From contig NC_057718.1 in NCBI RefSeq assembly GCF_004010195.1, positions 71,293,715 through 71,357,714 on the forward strand: a DNA stretch of 64,000 bases, in the 5' to 3' direction. Every line of letters starts with the position of its first letter. Position 1 is the stretch's first letter. This DNA comes from Chiloscyllium plagiosum. Lineage: Eukaryota. The position numbers were made by a program, and so were the translations under genes. The notes beneath the pieces were generated by a model. That model had not been told where the DNA came from. It did no database searches and worked only from the letters and a program-made list of their open reading frames with translations. Positions 22,736 to 60,899 of the stretch are shown piece by piece.

Positions 22736-23599
22736 TAGAATTTAGAATCCCTACAGTGTGAAAATGGGCCAATTGGCTCAACAAGTCCACGCTAACCCTC
22801 CAAAAAGTAACCCACTCAGACCCATTCCCTTACCCTATTATTCTACATTTACCCCTGACTAATGAACCTAATTTACACATCCCAAAACATTGTGGGAAAT
22901 TTAGCATGGCCAATTCACCCAATCTTTGGATTATGGGAAGAAACTGGTGCACTCAGAGACAGCTAGATGTAGCACTGGGGGTGAATGGGATCAAAGGTTA
23001 TGGAGAGAAAGCAGGATTAGGTCATGATCGTGAAGAATGACAGAGTAGGCTCAAAGGACTGAATGGCCTCCTCCTGCTCCTATCTTCTATGTTTCTATGT
23101 AACTGATTGCCATTGAATCAAGACCTATTGTTGCTTTATTTCAAATAATACAACAGTATGGACAAGCTTTGAGATGTTGGTTTTCATTGGACTTAATTTG
23201 GAGCATCAGTTAGGAAACCCCGCAGTAGCCAGGAGACAGGGACACATAATCAGTAATCTTTCAAATCTAGCGCAGTGTGGAAAGGTCTAATCTTTACAGA
23301 GCAGTTAGCTTGGACAGCAGTCAGAAGGCGAGGACACCGTAATCAGTAACCAAACTGCTGCACGAAAACCAAGAGAATCTCCAGTGCAGCTTCTGCTGAC
23401 ATCATAATTTCAAACAGTGAGTACTGGATTGGTGAGAACTGGGCACCTGACAATTATTGGTTAACCCTTTCTTAGTCAACCATAATTAGCATAGTGAGAA
23501 CTTCAGCAAAATAACTAACAATTCTGGTCAATTCTGAATTACAAACTTAAGATATGTCATTGCATCGCAGTAATGCTCTCCTACAATCTTTTCTGTCAT

Positions 23600-23901
23600 T
23601 CAAAAGGTACAGATGCTTGAACACACGCACCAGCAGGTTCAATAACAATTTCTTCCCTGCCGTTAGTAGACTGATGAGTGGACTCTCTAACTTCAAGTAA
23701 TGCTGATCTCGCTAACGTTGATCTTTCATGGCACATGCCCTGTGCGATTTAACTTGTATGCCTCTGTCTAGTATTTTCACCCTATGATCTCTTTGTTCTT
23801 GTTTACTGTGATCTGCCTGTACTGCTTGTAATCAAAGCTTTTCACTATACTTATTTACACATAACAATAAATCAATCAAATCAAATTAAATCAAATCAAA
23901 T
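23600..23901 (+). mobile_element. Rex1/Babar-like LINE 3' end with (TCAAA)n tail
   Basis: Encodes RTSRFNNNFFPAVSRL, followed by AATAAA and TCAAA repeats. Confidence 0.6.
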
Positions 23902-23952
23902 CGTCAGGCAAGGACAGCCGAGCATAATATGTAGGTTGTCATATATGAGGAG

Positions 23953-24583
23953 TGTAAGAAATGGGGAAGTGTGTTGTTTTTGAAGAAATAGAAAAGCAAG
24001 AGAGTGTATGTGCAGAAAAGGGGGACAAGAAAAATCTCAGCTGGGCAAGCATTAGAGAAATGTATCTTTATCTTTAATGAATAATTGTGGAGAATTAAAT
24101 ACTAACTTTAGTGCAGAATTATTAAAGCAAATAATTCTTTTAAATAATAGTCTCAGCAAAATAGCTGAGATAGCTGAAACGCATAAACCAAGCATGAAAA
24201 GATACATTGTTAAAACGTATGTTCAAGAATGTAATGTACTTATGAACAATGGAAGATGTTACAAGCAAAGTAAAAGAACATCAAGATACAAGTTTAGCCT
24301 TATGTCAGCACTTACAGAGGGAAAGGTTGCCAACTTGGAGAAAAGGGGGCAATAAGGGTGGAGCGCAGCTGGGTAGTGGTAGAATACAATAAAAAGTTTG
24401 GATAATGTAAGAGTCGGGAGAGGTGACTTCACACAGCTCAAAAGTATAACTGTGTACTAGTTTGAATGTTCATTACTCATTTGCTTCTGCATTTGATGCC
24501 CTTTCTTGCAAGATCGTAGAATAAATTGTCTTGTTTCCAGTTTTGGTGGTCTCGTCTAAATTTTATTAAACTTGTTTCTAACA
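23953..24583 (+). repeat. ERV 5' LTR
   Basis: TGTAAGAAA...TTTCTAACA; AATAAA at 24520; about 15 substitutions against the 3' LTR counted by eye. Confidence 0.95.
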
Positions 24584-24587
24584 GATT

Positions 24588-24606
24588 TGGGGGCTCGTTC
24601 CAGGAT
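24588..24606 (+). promoter_or_regulatory. ERV primer-binding site, tRNA-Pro-like
   Basis: TGGGGGCTCGTTCCAGGAT versus the MLV-type TGGGGGCTCGTCCGGGAT (one insertion, one mismatch). Confidence 0.8.
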
Positions 24607-25421
24607 CCCAAGCTCCGGTCTCTCGGCATTCTTGGAGAAACGGAGAAGGTGCACCTCGCTGATTTCGGCGATCTCTAGTTTCCCCTTGTTGCCATGGCGG
24701 CTTTGGGCAAGCGTGATCCGGACTGAGAGACCCTGAAAACAAGATGGGCAGACGCGGCTGGTTCGGTCGGGTGACTCTTGTGTACACAAGACCCGGTTTA
24801 GAAAGGTCTTAAAAGTTTTATCCGGGCGACCGGGGTCGGCAGCGGTATTTGCTGCCAGTCGGATATATCCGGGGAACCGGGGTTCTGGGCGACCGGGGTA
24901 GGCGAATCTGGTCAACCAGGGTAGGCAAAGTAATTGCTGCCAGTTGGATATACTGCAGGACAGGGCGCGCTGACACGCAGCAGGAGGTTTGGCCGAGTAA
25001 GCGACCGGGATAGCAACGGTAGCGTTTGCCAGGTATTGCCGCGGGACGTGGCGCGCTGATTCGACCAGGTAACTCTTGTGCACAGACCAAGGTAAGAAAG
25101 TGGATCTTTAAGTATTGCCTTGGTGGTCGGGGACGTACGAGAAGTACAGGACGTACGAGAAGTACGGGGAATTGGCAACATATAAAATAAAATATTTAAT
25201 TGGCTAGATTAATCTGACGAGTAAGGTGTCTACCTGATTCAATCACCTAGCCTTAGACGGGTTGTTAAGAGGGGAAATCCCCCACGCGAATGTCAAGACC
25301 CTAAAGTGGGTGTGGAAGAAGATGACATCGGACCTCAGTAAGGTTAATTAAATTATGTAAAGAAACGGCCAAGAATTAGTTGTTTAAGTGTCAAAGGAGA
25401 CATGAGAGGGATGTCCAAGGA

Positions 25422-25695
25422 CCACGTTCAATTCCCGTCTCAGGTGACTGACTGACTGTGTGGAGTTTGCACATCCTCCCTGTGTCTGCGTGGGTTTCCT
25501 CCGGGTGCTCCGGTTTCTTCCCACAGTCCAAAGATGTGCAGGTCAGGTGAATTGACCATGTTAAATTGCCCGTAGAGTTAGGTGAAAGAGTAAATGTAAG
25601 GGAATGGGTCTGGTGGATTGCTCTTCGGCGGGTCGGTGTGGACTTGTTGGGCCGAAGGGCCTGTTTCCACACTGTAAGTAATCTATCTAATCTAA
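25422..25695 (+). mobile_element. 5'-truncated HE1/V-SINE inserted in the ERV near the gag start
   Basis: SINE body from the B-box onward with TAATC tail; gag-like IPTDSPLGKML resumes directly after it. Confidence 0.88.
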
Positions 25696-27013
25696 TCCCA
25701 ACGGACAGTCCTTTAGGAAAAATGTTAAGAGATTGAAAGTACAATCCTTGGACACAAAATGATAAAAAATGATAAAATGTCAATGAAAAAACAGCCTTAC
25801 AGTCAGGAGGAATCAGATTATGCTTCGTGTCAGAAGGGCTAGTAGCTGAAGGGCTACTGAGGGTGCACTTCATAACTTACCTATGGCCAGACATCCAGAA
25901 AAATATTCAAAAGCTAAAGGAGTCATTGCGGGAAGCTCAAAGTGTCTGTGAGATACAGTGTTTGTGTGTCTGTGTGAGTGAGTGAGTGAAAAAAAGCTAA
26001 CAGAAAGTTTAACCCTTTGTGACTTGGTTTGAATGCACATTTGTTTGTTGGTGATTGAATGTTTGTGCTTTGTTCCCTGGAGCTTGAGATCCAGGACTGT
26101 TTTGAATCTGATTTCTATTATGGAAATTTTAACATGATTTCTTTTAAGTTTAAGGATTTTACAGATTATGAAATAAAATGTTAACTCCTGCTCTTCTTAC
26201 AGTTCATGACGGCCTTACTATCAGTTTCTAACTAATCTCTTTTATCCTTACATAAAAGCGATTTATGGAGGACAGTTGAAGTTTTAACTTGAATAGACAA
26301 ATTCCTTTTAAGGCAGCTCTGGTTATTTCATGACCAATAGCATTGTAATTGAGCAATGACTGGTCAGGACTACTTGGGAGGACTAGTTTTGGATTTGAAT
26401 CGGGGGACTAGAACTGGGTGATTGTGGTGGATTTCAGAGTTGGCATTTTGAATATTAAACACTGAGTTAATGAATTTATGATATATAAATATATATTTAC
26501 AAGTAAGATTCCAAAATGTATAGTTAGGAACAGACTTTAAAGAAAAGCAAGCTTAAATTGATAAATTGTATTTGAGATTACAGGGAGCAAGAAATATTGC
26601 AATATTTCTTTAAAAAAAAATCAAGGTCCTAACAAAACATTGGGTGATGAGGAATGGCCATGAGGTGGCCCTAAAGCTGTTCAGTTGTTTAAATCAGCTC
26701 TGGCAACGTAACATGAGAAGCAGAAACAGAAGGCAAAAATAAGCCACGGTTGATGAGATAATAAAGAAAAGGACAAAACTAAAAAGGAGAAGGAAACTTG
26801 AATGGTGGCAAGCAGCATGTTAAAAATAAAGGGAGGAGAAGCGATCAGGGAGGAGATGTTAAGGGGTCTGGTAGACAGGAACAAGGATCAAAGTAGAAAT
26901 CCCCACAGGTGGGATATTATTACTGTGGAAAGACAGGTCACTTTAAGAGAGAGTGTCCAGATCCGAAAAAGGAAGTAAAGGCAGTGCTGTTTATGAACCT
27001 TGATGAAAAATAG
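25695..27013 (+). pseudogene. gag: ERV gag remnants (MA, CA C-terminus, zinc knuckle)
   Basis: PTDSPLGKML; HFITYLWPDIQKNIQKL; EKQKQKAKI; YYCGKTGHFKRECP; ends at TAG 27011-27013; internal deletions and non-coding interruptions. Confidence 0.8.
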
Positions 27014-27160
27014 GGGTGTCAGGAGTTCTTGCCCCTGGGGACCCACCATGAACCCTTGATAAATTTAAAGGTGGGACCTTACAAAGAGGACGTAATTTTC
27101 CTCGTCAATACGGGGGCAGCAAGGTCATCCTTAAAATTTAAGCCCAAGGGAGTGGGAACA
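27014..27160 (+). pseudogene. pro: ERV protease N-terminus, active-site D changed to N
   Basis: GCQEFLPLGTHHEPLINLKVG..FLVNTGAARSSL in frame after the gag TAG. Confidence 0.85.
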
Positions 27161-27529
27161 AAAAAGTTAATTGGATTATGGCAACAGTTTTGTGGCAATA
27201 TCTCGTCATCAGTTTTGTGCTCATGACGAGATATTGCCACCAAATTGGGGATTGAATTAACTGCAAATGGTGCTATGGAATCTGTTGAGTTTCTTAAAAA
27301 TGAATGTGCTCGAGCAAAACAATTACAGAAACAGAATGAGAAGTCACAAGTGACTGGTAAACAAACAGAACTGCGCGATTACAGTTGTTAAAATGTTTTA
27401 GTCACTTGTAGTGTTTCCACCCTGAATTATATAATATATATAATTAATATTTATACTAAATCAATTGTGTTAGCCTGAATCAATATTAATTGACCCAGAC
27501 ACCTCTACTTGAGTTCGACAACCGGGTGA

Positions 27530-27745
27530 TTGGGTCCTGATCAAGACCTGGAAAGTACCAAACTGCACCCGAGCTGGGATGGACCATTCCTAACCCTCCT
27601 GACTACTGAGACAGCTATCCGAACTGCTGAGAAAGGGTGGAGTCATCACACTCGCGTTAAAGATCCTGTGAACGTCCCATTGGCAGTGTGGCATGCTCAT
27701 CCTACAGACAACCCTCTGAAAATTAAGCTAAGAAAGAAGGAATGA
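27530..27745 (+). pseudogene. pol: ERV integrase C-terminal (GPY/F) fragment
   Basis: LHPSWDGPFLTLLTTETAIRTAEKGWSHHTRVK. Confidence 0.85.
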
Positions 27746-27888
27746 ACTGAGGTAAAAGACTCTTTCACTCTTTTTAACATTTGATGATTATATATATAGT
27801 TATTAGTTGTAAGGGCTGTGTGGACTCACCTTTCCCTGGTGCCTAAAAGATTAAGACAGATAGACAGGACGGTAGGCAGGGGTCAGAG

Positions 27889-29116
27889 ATGGGCGGGTAC
27901 TGGTATAGTATAGTAACGTTAGTAGTATTAACTGTTCAAGGAGGCGGGAAAAATTACTTCACTACACTATGCCAAAATTATGCTGAACAAGAGGGACTTG
28001 CCGACTGTTGGGTCTGTGCAGAGGTCCCACACCATGACGAATCTGTGATCCCCACCTCGGTAATACAGCTCACCAAAAGAGAAGTGTACGATGTATAACA
28101 ATTTGACTCGGGCTCAAATGATACAAAGTGGAGATTTGACAGGGGTAAATATAACTTTGCGGGATGGTTCCCTAGACCAGCCCCAAAAACCCAGGGTGCT
28201 ATCGATGGCCTTAGAATTTCCACACCGAAAGGAGCAGTAAATACCACTTGTTTCTGTAATCAGAATAACGCCGCACCCTTCCAATTAGGAAAATCATCTT
28301 GTGTCTACACCAGCCAAGCCACTGCCATGACCACTCCCCGAATATTAAACGGAACATATTGGGTATGCGGCCTGAAGGCCTATCCATTTATTCCCGTGGA
28401 AAAATACATTCGCGTGACCAAATGTATAGGAAACACTGCCTCAAGACCAGAAAGGCTGGAGTGGCTGCTGTTACCTCACTTATATAATCCCTCACCTCCG
28501 AATAGAAAAACATGAGCCCAACCTGAGAAAGGAAGGGGGAATAAGACGTAAGATCAGAGAAGTCTCTGAAGGAGACTGTCTGTTGTGGACACTATTCCCA
28601 AACTACGGCACTACAAGGGCAGGGGTGGAAATACAGAAACTGGCGGCTGCCCTTGAAAATTTAATTAATGATACCACCGGCGCAATGGAAGAAACTCAAT
28701 CCCAAATATCGGCCATAACCACCAAAATGATTGCCACAAGACTGAAAGCTTTACAGAATCGAATGGCTTTAGACTATCTTTCGGCCGAAAAAGGGGGAAT
28801 CTGTGCTCTGATTGGTAAGGAATGTTGCACCATCATCCCAGACACCTCTTCCATAATGGAAGATAAGGCAGAAATAGTAAAGAAAAAGATAACCAATACA
28901 AGAGAAATTGGGGATGAACTCCGAAAAGATGAAGGATGGGGATGGGGCAACTGGGGACTGACTGGTTGGGGAAAATGGTTAGTTAATTTAGGCATTTATG
29001 TATTACTAATAATAGTAGGTCTATTGATAGGGTTTAATGTGTTAAAGTGGATAATGACTAAGCTGGTAATGTCTTTGGGAGGACAACAATCAATAATGGT
29101 CATGACAATAGCATAA
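27889..29116 (+). pseudogene. env: ERV envelope (gamma-type SU+TM), about 408 aa when repaired
   Basis: Signal peptide, CWVC (CxxC), NGTYWVCG, W.GCCY, RRKIR cleavage site, ISD LQNRMALDYLSAEKGG, CX6CC (CALIGKECC), TM helix; one in-frame TAA (28096-28098) and one frameshift (~28410-28453). Confidence 0.92.
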
Positions 29117-29282
29117 GCACAAGAAAGAGAGAGGAGCAGATTACTCCTAGAGTTTGAATAAAAAGATAGACTTAGAAGGACAGAAATAGCAAGATTGTGA
29201 ACCTCGGCACCATAGGGTGAAAAGAGGGCAGAAAATAAAATTGCAAAAACAACAAATAGTTAAAGAAAAGAAATGGGGGAAT

Positions 29283-29913
29283 TGTAAGAAATGGGGAAGT
29301 GTGTTGTTTTTGAAGAAATAGAAAAGCAAGAGAGTATATGTGCAGAAAAGGGGGACAAGAAAAATATCAGCTGGGCAAGCATTAGGGAAATGTATCTTTA
29401 TCTTTAATGAATAATTGTGGAGAATTAAATACTAACTTTAGTGCAGAATTATTAAAGCAAATAATTATTTTAAATAATAGTCTCAGTAAAATAGCTGAGA
29501 CAGCTGAAACGCATAAACCAAGCATGAAAAGATACATTGTTAAAACGTATGTTCAAGAATGGAATGTACTTATGAACAATGGAAGATGTTACAAGCAAAG
29601 TAAAAGAACATCAAGATACAAGTTTAGCCTTATGTCAGCACTTACAGAGGGAAAGGTTGCCAACTTGGAGAAAAGGGGGCAATAAGGGTGGAGCGCAGCT
29701 GGGTAGTGGTAGAATACAATAAAAAGTTTGGGTAATGTAAGAGTCGGGAGAGGTGACCTCACACAGCTCAAAAGTACAACTGTGTACTAGTTTGAATGTT
29801 CATTACTCATTTTCTTCTGCATTTAATGCCCTTTCTTGCAAGATTGTAGAATAAATTGTCTTGTTTCCAGTTTTGGTGGTCTTGTCTAAATTTTATTAAA
29901 CCTGTTTCTAACA
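29283..29913 (+). repeat. ERV 3' LTR
   Basis: Preceded by PPT AAAGAAAAGAAATGGGGGAAT; near-identical to 23953-24583. Confidence 0.95.
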
Positions 29914-29919
29914 TGAGGA

Positions 29920-32300
29920 ACTCTGGATGCCAGTGTCCTAGATGACCACAAGTTCTGGAAGTGCCCCAGTTGCAGAAGCTGGAGCTCTGGGATTTGGAGC
30001 TGAAGCAGTGTTTGGAGACACTGTGACACATCCACAAGGCTGACAGTTATGTGGATAGCATGATGAGGGAGGTGATCAGACCAAGCTCAAGGGACTAGAC
30101 AAAAGAAGGGAATGAATAACCACCAGACAGTTCAGAAAGAACAGGCAGGTAGTGAAGGAGTCCCCTGAAGTCCCACTCATGAACTGGTATTCCAGTTTTG
30201 GAAGCTGTAGAGGGTGTTGGTTCATCAGAGCAGTTCGATCAGAGCCAAGCTCCTGGCAGCACAATCGGCTTGAGTGTATAGTGGGGGAGGAAGAAGGAAG
30301 GAAGAACAATAGTGATGGGTGATTCTTTAGTCAGTGGAGCAGACAGGCAGTTCAGTGGCTGAAGACATGATTCCAAGATAGTGTTTTATCTCGCTGCTGC
30401 CAGGGTTATGGATGTCACCAAATGGTTGTAGGGCTTCCTGAAAGGGGAGCATGCTGAATTAGAGGTCACAGCACATGTTGGTACCAACAAAATGGGAAAA
30501 GTGAGGAATGAGGGGAGCTCGGCAGTATATTAAAAAGCAAGACTTCAATGTTTGTAATCTCTGGATTACGCCCAGTGCCACATGTTTGTGCGTATAGAAA
30601 TTGGAGAATAGGATAGATGAATGTGTGGCTCAAGAGTTGATGCAAGAGGGAGGGTTTTAGATTCTGGATCACTGGGATGTTTTTGGAGAAGATGGAACAT
30701 GTATAAATGAGATGGTGTACACTTGAACCATACTGGGACCCATATCCTCGCATACAGGTTTGCTCGTGCTGTTGGGAGGAATTTAAGCTAGTCTGGCAGG
30801 GGAAGGGATACAGAATGTTGATGAAAGAGACACATCATGCTACAGCAAAGAAAGTAAACACAGTGAGTTAAGCTATGTTGAATGTCAAGAGCATGAGGCA
30901 AGGCTGGAAGGTCTTCACTTTAATGCTAGCAATGTTACAGTTGAGACGGATGAGTTAAAGGCATAGATTGACAAATGGAAGTGTGATGTTGCTGCCATCA
31001 CAGCAACATGGTTGAAGGAAGGGCTGGACTGGCAACTAATCATTCTGGGATGTAGGACCTTTAGGCGAAGAGGGTGTAAAAAGGGTGATGGTGTAGCATT
31101 GTTAATCAAGAAGTCAATTACTGCAATAAGAGGAGATGATATCTTGGAAAGATCCTCAAATGAGTCTTTGTGGGTGGAACCTAGGAATGTTAAGGGGCAG
31201 CCACTTTATTGGGAGTGTATTATACGGCCCAAATCAGTCAGCAAAAAATAGATTAGATTAGATTACTTACAGTGTGGAAACAGGCCCTTCGGCCCAACAA
31301 GTCCACACCGACCCGCCACCCACCCATACCCCTACATTTACCCATTTAACCTAACACTACGGGCAATTTAGCATGGCCAATTCACCTGACCTGCACATCT
31401 TTGGACTGTGGGAGGAAACCGGAGCACCCGGAGGAAACCCACGCAGACAACGTGCCAACTCCACACAGTCAGTCGCCTGAGTCGGGAATTGAACCCGGGT
31501 CTCTGGCGCTGTGAGGCAGCAGTGCCCACCGAAATAGAGGAGCAAATCTGTAGACAATTCATAGAGGTGTTAATAATTTGGTAATTATACTAAGGGATTT
31601 CAACTTTCCCAACATAAACTAGGATAGTCATATTTTTAAGCGTTTCAAGAAGGCAGACTTCTTGAAATGTATCCAGGGGAGTTTTTTGTATCATTAAATG
31701 GAAAGCCCAACAAAGGGTAGTGCATAGCTGGATCTGGTTCTGAGGAAACCAACTGAACAAATATTTGATGGAATATTTAAGTAATAGTGAGTACAACATG
31801 GTATGGTTCAAATTTATTACAGACAAGGAAAGTCATGGCCTGCAAAAGGTGGCTTTGTATTGGGGAAAAGTAGATTTTATTAAAATAAAACAGGATTTGG
31901 CCAAAGTTGACTGGGAACAGCTCCTCGTAGTTATTTGGATGGCATTCAAAAAGGAACCGGAGATAGTACAAGTCCAAAGCATACCCTTTAAGGGGAAATA
32001 TAGCAGCAAAAGGTTCAGAGAATCCTGGGATAAGGTGATACATTGACAGGGTGATAGGTAGATAGGGTGACATGTATGTCAGGTGGCAGGTTGGAAGGTT
32101 GATGAGATGGCAGACTAGTTGGCAGGGAGAGTAACATGTTGGTAGCTGGGTAGGATGGCAAGTTGGTGTGGTGACAGGTTGGACCTTTTTGAGGCTCACC
32201 TATTAAAGATAGCATGATTAGAACAAATGTGATGGACAAAGACATTGGGAGAATGGAATGGAATCTTTCCAGGGAGCAAAGTGCGAGGATGTCCAAATAA
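29920..32300 (+). mobile_element. Old CR1 LINE (ORF1 and endonuclease region), the target of the ERV insertion
   Basis: GGGTGATTCTTTAGTCAG (GDS motif), ESLWVE, GDFNFPNI-like GGGATTTCAACTTTCCCAACATA. Confidence 0.7.
31250..31530 (-). mobile_element. HE1/V-SINE
   Basis: Reverse-complement SINE; AAATAGA on both sides is a plausible TSD. Confidence 0.9.
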
Positions 32301-59888: not shown

Positions 59889-60690
59889 TTAGGTTAGTTT
59901 GTCCACAAAGTCTCTTGCCATCTCCGATGTGTCAATGAGATGCATGGATCCATCTAAGGTGATCCGAAGCACTGCCGGTTATCTCTGAGTACTGACTCCC
60001 AAGCTCCTTCAATCTTCTCTTGACGCCATCATACAATTTTCGTTTCTGGATCACCGCCGCTGAAAAGTCCTGAAAAAACATGATCTTAGACCCCTCGTAA
60101 ATTAGGGCCTTTGGATCCTTCCCCTGGAGTCTGGAAGCCTCCATGACTCTCTCCTTATCCCAGTAATGATGGAACCCGCACCAGGAAAGACGAGGGCGTT
60201 GACCCAGACCCGGCCTCTGTGTTACGACCCGGTGAGCCCTCTCTATCTTCAATCCTCTCATGCCAATCTCCAAGTCAAGGAATTTCGGAAGCCAATCTTC
60301 AACAAATTCCGCAGGCCGCTCACCTTCCCTACCCTCAGGTAGGCCGATGATCCGAATGTTTTTTCTCCTGCTCCTGTTTTCAAGATCATCCACTTGGTCA
60401 CGCAAATTACGAACCTGCGTCTTCAGGGCTTGGATCTTTTCCTTGAATGAACTGGCATCAGCTTCCATCACTGTGACCCTGTGCTCCACCTCATCCGTCC
60501 TCTTCTCCAGGTCTCCCAGCTGCTGCTCATGCTTCTGCAGCATGAGAGAGACTGGAGCCAGCTTCTCTTCAATCTGTTTCCCCAACATCTCGCAAGATTT
60601 CAAAAGCTGGCTCACCACGTCCTGGAGAGTAATCGGCTCCGACGCTGCTGCAGGCCCGGCCTCAGATGCGCCTCCTCCCTTTTTAGGCAT
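59889..60690 (-). pseudogene. L1 ORF1 (coiled coil and RRM), with frameshifts near the C-terminus
   Basis: DDLENRSRRKNIRIIGLPE..IERAHR..IMFFQDFS. Confidence 0.92.
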
Positions 60691-60899
60691 TTCTGGACAG
60701 CTGAAAATACAGGTAAGTCAATTTTTAAATGTTTCTTGGGGCTCCACAATCTTTCCAACGCCCCAAGAAATCCTGATGACGTGGGTTGGGTGGGTCAAAG
60801 GACCGTCCTGCTCCTGCTGCGATGCGAAGCTCTGCAGTATGAACTTCTCAGATCACCGCCATCTTAGATCCCCCCAGCACCACGCTTTTTGACTATTTG

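Follow-up and report, generated by a model that had tools for sequence, protein, structure and literature searches.

A 64,000-nucleotide stretch of the Chiloscyllium plagiosum genome (NCBI RefSeq assembly GCF_004010195.1, contig NC_057718.1, forward-strand positions 71,293,715 to 71,357,714), here called the window, carries an endogenous retrovirus (ERV) at 23953-29913; all coordinates below are positions in the window. This element is a dead provirus and one of many copies of a carpet-shark family that is class I (ERV1-like) in its features; we regard it as moderately probable that it was generated by copying of a defective template in trans and that its env gene was a neutral passenger. Its cis-acting parts, namely the long terminal repeats (LTRs), primer-binding site, leader and polypurine tract, are retained, while it is unable to produce Gag, Pol or Env. 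With intact cis elements and without functional Gag or Pol, the element is non-autonomous. Loss of env is the commoner route in non-autonomous ERVs. The provirus represents a class I ERV family of carpet sharks that is multi-copy, fairly young and apparently undescribed (no description of it was found in the literature; Repbase and Dfam were outside the search) and is an example of a pol-deleted, env-bearing derivative that resembles chicken EAV-HP.

LTRs, cis elements and coding remnants

The two LTRs (Table 1) differ by 15 substitutions (11 transitions and 4 transversions) distributed along the entire LTR, with no gaps, giving a Kimura two-parameter distance of 0.024 (95% range 0.013-0.039). 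The original prediction, made from the letters of the window, had described 631-bp LTRs with about 15 differences, and the LTR comparison agreed with it. The primer-binding site is presumed, by its motif, to be tRNA-Pro-like. Intact cis elements and a 2.4% LTR distance without indels, set against large lesions in gag and pol, favor the copying of a genome that was already defective.

The gag gene is broken and pol is cut down to the start of the protease and the tail of the integrase, as had been predicted; Pfam scans and the alignment to Pol confirmed this, and the DTG of the protease was confirmed to be changed to NTG. In six-frame Pfam scans of 24584-27760, with stops read as X, there was no match to reverse transcriptase (RT), RNase H or rve, and only the zinc knuckle and the integrase tail were detected. 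The latter matches MLVIN_C at E 2e-5, under the curated cut-off, in a region that contains GPF, and of a 1124-aa bird Pol only the final 70 residues, in the integrase, can be aligned. In gag, the matrix (MA) start is assigned by its motif, and library protein P0154 matches the end of the capsid (CA) region at 25854-25952 (E 2e-4). Five features had escaped the original prediction: a short interspersed element (SINE) that sits eight codons past the probable gag ATG, an AT-rich block with 15-21 stops per frame, a nucleocapsid (NC) zinc knuckle without its first Cys, the 323 bp of unassigned DNA that stand where pol should be, and the 4-bp target-site duplication with its one mismatch. The AT-rich block also has a strong acceptor-like site ending near 26202. 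The segment that replaces most of pol includes an inverted repeat of 28 bp as well as an open stretch of 54 codons; it has no Pfam family and no usable Atlas match, and its likeness to the protease end of P0156 is 7/15 (E 0.13). A microRNA identity for the inverted repeat was discarded as chance, the two Rfam matches being below threshold.

Table 1. Features of the provirus and its insertion site (window coordinates).
Feature	Position	Strand	Basis or remark
Target-site duplication, left copy, 4 bp	23949-23952	.	1 mismatch vs right copy 29914-29917; flanks read
5' LTR, TG..CA	23953-24583	+	631 bp
Primer-binding site	24588-24606	+	resembles tRNA-Pro type
GC-rich leader, short direct repeats; donor-like site 25091/25092	24607-25401	+	P0155 N-terminus, tblastn 24802-24858
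Probable gag start, interrupted by SINE	25402-25425	+	MA motif
5'-truncated host SINE, older subfamily, inside gag	25426-25697	+	window SINE copies; joint skipping the SINE in run X5
gag remnant: MA start joined to CA end, one stop, frame changes	25698-25960	+	P0154 at CA end
Non-coding, AT-rich block separating CA end from NC	25961-26640	.	680 bp; common to other copies
gag NC, degenerate zinc knuckle, gag/pol TAG 27011-27013	26641-27013	+	zf-CCHC, E 1e-4
Protease N-terminal part, 51 codons	27014-27166	+	active-site D replaced by N
Multi-copy DNA replacing RT, RNase H and integrase core, 323 bp	27167-27489	.	unassigned; inverted repeat 27185-27247
Integrase C-terminal tail, frame changes	27490-27745	+	MLVIN_C match
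Broken gamma-type env	27889-29116	+	signal peptide, CWVC, RRKIR 28544-28558, ISD, CX6CC, anchor
env stop TAA	28096-28098	+	translation
env deletion with frame change (most likely)	~28433	+	alignment to relatives
Polypurine tract	29262-29279	+	read from sequence
3' LTR, TG..CA	29283-29913	+	631 bp

These features fit a class I, ERV1-like retrovirus, an assignment that stands apart from RT phylogeny, RT being absent. Gag and pol lie in one frame across a TAG, which is a class I feature. Both a zinc knuckle in gag, albeit without its first Cys, and a GPF/Y motif after the position of the integrase core were found; the putative target-site duplication has 4 bp with one mismatch. A 4-bp duplication is given as a class I/ERV1 feature in the available portion of PMC4299795, which describes ERV4 as having no zinc finger, no GPF/Y motif and 5-bp duplications; membership in ERV4 was rejected because the element has a zinc knuckle, GPF and a 4-bp repeat, the last with one mismatch.

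The env gene and its relatives

The TAA at 28096, the CWVC and RRKIR motifs, the immunosuppressive domain (ISD), CX6CC and the hydrophobic anchor were all where they had been predicted when the gene was translated. All the gamma-type motifs are thus present, but they are scattered over three broken pieces. The transmembrane (TM) frame has 228 open codons, matches TLV_coat at E 3e-13, and matches the TM subunits of syncytins (syncytin-1 and -2) and of murine leukemia virus (MLV); a search of solved structures with the surface (SU) piece produced no significant match. The view that env was near-intact, with two small breaks, did not survive the comparison with relatives. The SU region is colinear with them as far as 28434; at that point P0151 and P0005 have 11 residues, and P0002 has 14, that are unmatched. 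The residues missing at this point include one Cys (SU has 10, compared to 11 in P0151), and several residues common to the relatives are changed in the window env, one of them within the ISD. Since the residues of the relatives have no counterpart there, the alignment indicates that the frame break is most likely a deletion rather than a one-base slip. It could also be a naturally shorter loop of the subfamily, considering that the loop of P0001 and P0019 is shorter and of another sequence. An argument from cysteine parity in SU was set aside, as the counts in the relatives range from 9 to 12.

No open full-length env reading frame exists at this locus, which has both the stop and the break. 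In neutral simulations of env at 1.2% divergence, a mean of 0.67 new stops arose and 48% of the runs had at least one. A single stop therefore calls for no selection, as neutral decay at the LTR-derived rate predicts a similar number. The observed state of env does not require selection, although it is compatible with some.

Relatives of env were collected with HMMER (1074 at E up to 0.001, of which the best 150 were listed) from a library that holds one protein per 50% cluster and in which broken copies are rarely annotated; names were looked up for 20 proteins. The nearest named relatives among the matches listed are gene models of the zebra shark, Stegostoma tigrinum (XP_048383747, XP_048387159, XP_059503658 and XP_059509499), and of Chiloscyllium (C. 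plagiosum XP_043561169), while env models of catshark, sawfish, white shark, stingray, sturgeon and coelacanth are more distant. The carpet-shark env models, all partial and shorter than 400 aa, are 66-80% identical to the window in SU and 57-62% in TM, and they agree with it in having a compact SU and in the words of the leader and the integrase tail. The C. punctatum integrase-tail models XP_072406404 and XP_072406529 are also among the closest systems. In a TM tree with 57 rows, namely the window, P0151 and whichever of the top 60 matches cover the TM core, the window and four carpet-shark rows form a clade with support 100/93, in which the branch of the window is long (0.7).

Among 151 proteins compared, the six relatives that are at least 55% identical have lengths of 147-367 aa, and of the 68 proteins with at least 400 aa the best is 40% identical. 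The shortness of these relatives is weak evidence, drawn from a clustered library, that open copies of a close env may be rare. A word-based search found a close env of 400-2000 aa in 0 of 2272 candidates, a weak result because relatives at 36-40% identity were missed as well.

Within 28126-28915, the window SU is nearer to the zebra-shark relatives than TM is, the reverse of the usual pattern. Few of the fixed differences from family contigs that were listed fall in TM. The SU/TM contrast may be a trait of the family, due to recombination or to fast change in the second heptad.

Predicted env splicing

Two C. punctatum gene models, P0155 and P0159, have a leader-derived start that ends in VHRPR and continues straight into the integrase tail. 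The VHRPR of the window ends exactly at the donor-like site in the leader. In both models the repeated tail exon has a common start point, which lies a few residues ahead of LTQTP. Homology in the window sets in at LTQTP (27490), and unrelated DNA takes the place of the residues before it. From these models we infer that the join between leader and integrase tail would be the env splice of the family and that its acceptor would have been removed here by the pol deletion. The env of this copy is, then, probably not expressible by the family's normal splice. Both models have two or three tandem integrase-tail exons after the leader-derived start, an arrangement that suggests an array of family pieces predicted to be spliced exon to exon. 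With regard to RNA, none of the runs listed as having parts of the stretch is recorded as RNA. The raw RNA run X22 had 0 reads on the window, even on the SINE, and is hence uninformative for expression; run X15, which is RNA by guess only, has family contigs across env, from which expression is not claimed.

Copies of the family

Sequences from four public runs were compared with the window at 85% likeness, and 24 of about 247,000 pieces were listed. Parts of the stretch are present in 20 of the 24 listed runs, from four organisms and 10 studies, with at most 0.38 of the words in each. In run X1 the unique flank (23075-23707) is present at depth 7 and differs at one position, and organism A is therefore the host or a very close relative; the flank contig stops at 23707 and none of the listed pieces crosses 23952. 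Summed contig depth in X1, expressed as a multiple of that of the flank bin, is 89-97 for the LTR, 50-77 for the leader, 226-543 for NC and protease, 330 for the pol gap and 84-218 for env, and the profile of run X5 is similar. In both runs every internal bin has 50-1600 times the depth of the unique-flank bin, a ratio that is not a copy number and is read only as many copies. The element belongs to a multi-copy family present in up to four organisms.

One X1 contig (25922-25995) crosses the edge between the CA end and the AT-rich block, and one X5 contig (26446-26684) crosses the edge between that block and NC, so the disrupted gag is common to copies in two organisms (A and B). Another X5 contig skips the SINE and has other letters at the gag start. 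The suggestion that the element belongs to a family mobilised in trans was supported in part, by the many copies, the gag block common to others and a SINE that looks older than the LTR pair; a shared pol deletion was not seen in the 24 listed pieces. The AT-rich block has a depth up to about 1500 times that of the flank in both DNA runs, the highest of the non-SINE bins, and it may be common to a far larger repeat family that is env-less or unrelated.

Order of events

Compared with the majority of 9 other copies in the window, the SINE inside gag differs at 14 of 262 sites, 9 private and 5 shared with older copies, and it has a short segment that marks an older subfamily. The 9 private changes exceed the approximately 3 expected at 1.2% (P 0.005). 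With a word share of 0.38, the window copy lies about 3% away from its nearest variants among the contigs, and this distance, together with the divergence of the SINE, suggests that the template was older than the LTR pair. An older template implies either re-insertion of an already dead genome or gene conversion between the LTRs. The even distribution of the LTR differences weakly favors re-insertion.

In the sequence of events that we propose, the template would already have been defective, with gag split by the AT-rich block and probably by the SINE, and with pol largely gone. It would have been transcribed from its LTR, packaged and reverse transcribed by the proteins of a helper relative, and inserted into an old LINE-like repeat, producing two near-identical LTRs. 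The env gene would have been carried along because of its location 3' of the deletion and next to the polypurine tract, and would then have decayed neutrally. Complementation in trans is one of three routes named in the available text of PMC10435555.

A less likely alternative is decay in place, in which a fuller provirus, inserted long ago, acquired the SINE, deletions and stops at this locus and gene conversion made the LTRs look young. The distance from the nearest contig variants exceeds the 1.2% implied by the LTRs, the target-site duplication has a mismatch, the SINE is 3.4-5.3% diverged, and several lesions are private, all of which agree with it, as does a pol deletion unbridged in the 24 listed pieces. 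On the other hand, partial conversion would leave the LTR differences patchy rather than spread along the whole LTR, and the AT-rich gag block is common to other copies in two organisms. The derived sites found in both LTRs (24092 and 24433) could likewise result from reverse transcription of a diverged template.

Several observations weigh against copying of a defective template with env as a passenger. A helper that has the same LTR did not turn up, and the nearest long Pol detected belongs to a bird. None of the 24 listed pieces spans the MA/CA junction or either end of the pol deletion, and this deletion may be unique to the locus. The gag/pol lesions at 25786, 26894 and 27555 are absent from most family contigs, which makes much of the damage private to this copy. 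The excess of SINE changes loses significance once the LTR bound is taken at its upper value, 2% (P 0.08), and the predicted splice comes from translated gene models, not from transcripts. Nearly all family contigs differ from the window at nine listed env sites. That eight of these are at codon position 1 or 2 speaks for env as a passenger, but the sites belong to a biased set, namely the 40 best-supported of 847 substitution rows (12 of 88 indels were listed). Lastly, lesions are sparser in env than in what is left of gag and pol (2 per about 1230 bases vs about 8 small ones per about 1000, counted by motifs), which would also fit selection or a late recombination of env.

Function of env

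The lower density of lesions in env could reflect selection on env after a non-autonomous subfamily had lost gag and pol, either to supply env-less helpers or to block a receptor, this particular copy having decayed later. We consider this improbable. The env is colinear with P0151 except for one gap, TM is open for 228 codons despite being 38-42% diverged from the nearest named relatives, the Chiloscyllium models suggest leader-to-acceptor splicing of family copies, and the contigs across env in the guessed RNA run point in the same direction. However, an open and diverged TM is also expected from past viral replication, and this copy lacks the inferred acceptor. In addition, the close relatives are short and the best of those with at least 400 aa is at 40% identity, the env bins are mostly shallower than the NC, protease and AT-rich bins in both DNA runs, and one X5 contig represents other copies with an env deletion at 27998-28114. 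The idea that env was kept for a function is accordingly unsupported: one stop fits neutral decay, the deletion is present, the acceptor is probably lost and none of the close relatives found reaches 400 aa. Neither selection on env nor a syncytin-like use is supported here, and this copy argues against a selected env in a subfamily with dead gag and pol.

A more elaborate version, which we hold to be quite doubtful, is that a subfamily with dead gag and pol spread in trans with env under purifying selection and that some copies would have an open, acceptor-bearing and fast-evolving env. Such an env would complement env-less relatives or block the receptor, a two-component retroviral partnership in cartilaginous fish that appears just as doubtful. 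If pol-deleted copies did keep an open env under selection, this would be a case of env maintained without its own gag and pol, the earliest stage of a capture of the receptor-blocking or syncytin-like kind, in a lineage known so far from sequence surveys only.

Domestication of a syncytin-like host gene at this locus is extremely improbable. The gamma-type motifs and the likeness to the TM of syncytin-1 and -2 speak for it, as do NCBI names such as 'syncytin-1-like' on relatives, which are assigned automatically. The stop, the deletion with frame change, the substitution in the ISD and the probable loss of the acceptor speak against it, and young, intact LTRs in a multi-copy family are not those of an old single locus; for this allele domestication is already contradicted.

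Comparison with known systems

The element considered here is class I-like, and chicken EAV-HP is class II. EAV-HP is nevertheless the nearest structural analogue in the available texts: it is described as multi-copy, without any pol and with gag and env each lacking a part; a related species has a more complete form, and there are about 66 integration intervals per bird (PMC12523071, PMC4607243). It differs in being related to avian leukosis viruses, and its env is thought to have entered subgroup J of these viruses (ALV-J) by recombination; no such role as env donor has been shown for the shark element. Pol-less, env-bearing ERVs also include those of zebrafish DrEnv4, which, in the accessible part of PMC8672886, are class I according to the authors and have mostly lost the RT region while keeping env sequence. 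DrEnv4 lacks a signal peptide, CX6CC and an anchor, whereas the shark env has these and is broken elsewhere.

Almost nothing was known of retrovirus-derived genes in fish according to the available portion of a 2016 review (PMC4977317). Open env reading frames in cartilaginous fish have already been reported, with 295 syncytin-like candidates in 16 chondrichthyans (bioRxiv 10.64898/2026.05.06.723177). They share with the window a gamma-type env, a furin site, the ISD and CX6CC, but they are open, have about 400 aa or more, and in the catshark most adjoin an RT-bearing pol, neither of which applies to the window copy. The main text of that report gives no carpet-shark name; its supplements may list such candidates.

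Other features of the window

A 99-codon stop-free frame is found in both LTRs (24056-24355 and 29386-29685), and the 99-aa product of the 5' LTR has no Pfam match. Several short direct repeats lie in the leader at 24757-25166. No second copy of the element was found within the 64-kb window. The insertion target is apparently the start of a decayed LINE-like ORF1 (23903-23952 and 29914-30100), judged as such by its motifs. A 261-codon frame on the minus strand at 59932-60717 is presumably LINE ORF1-like, with a coiled coil.

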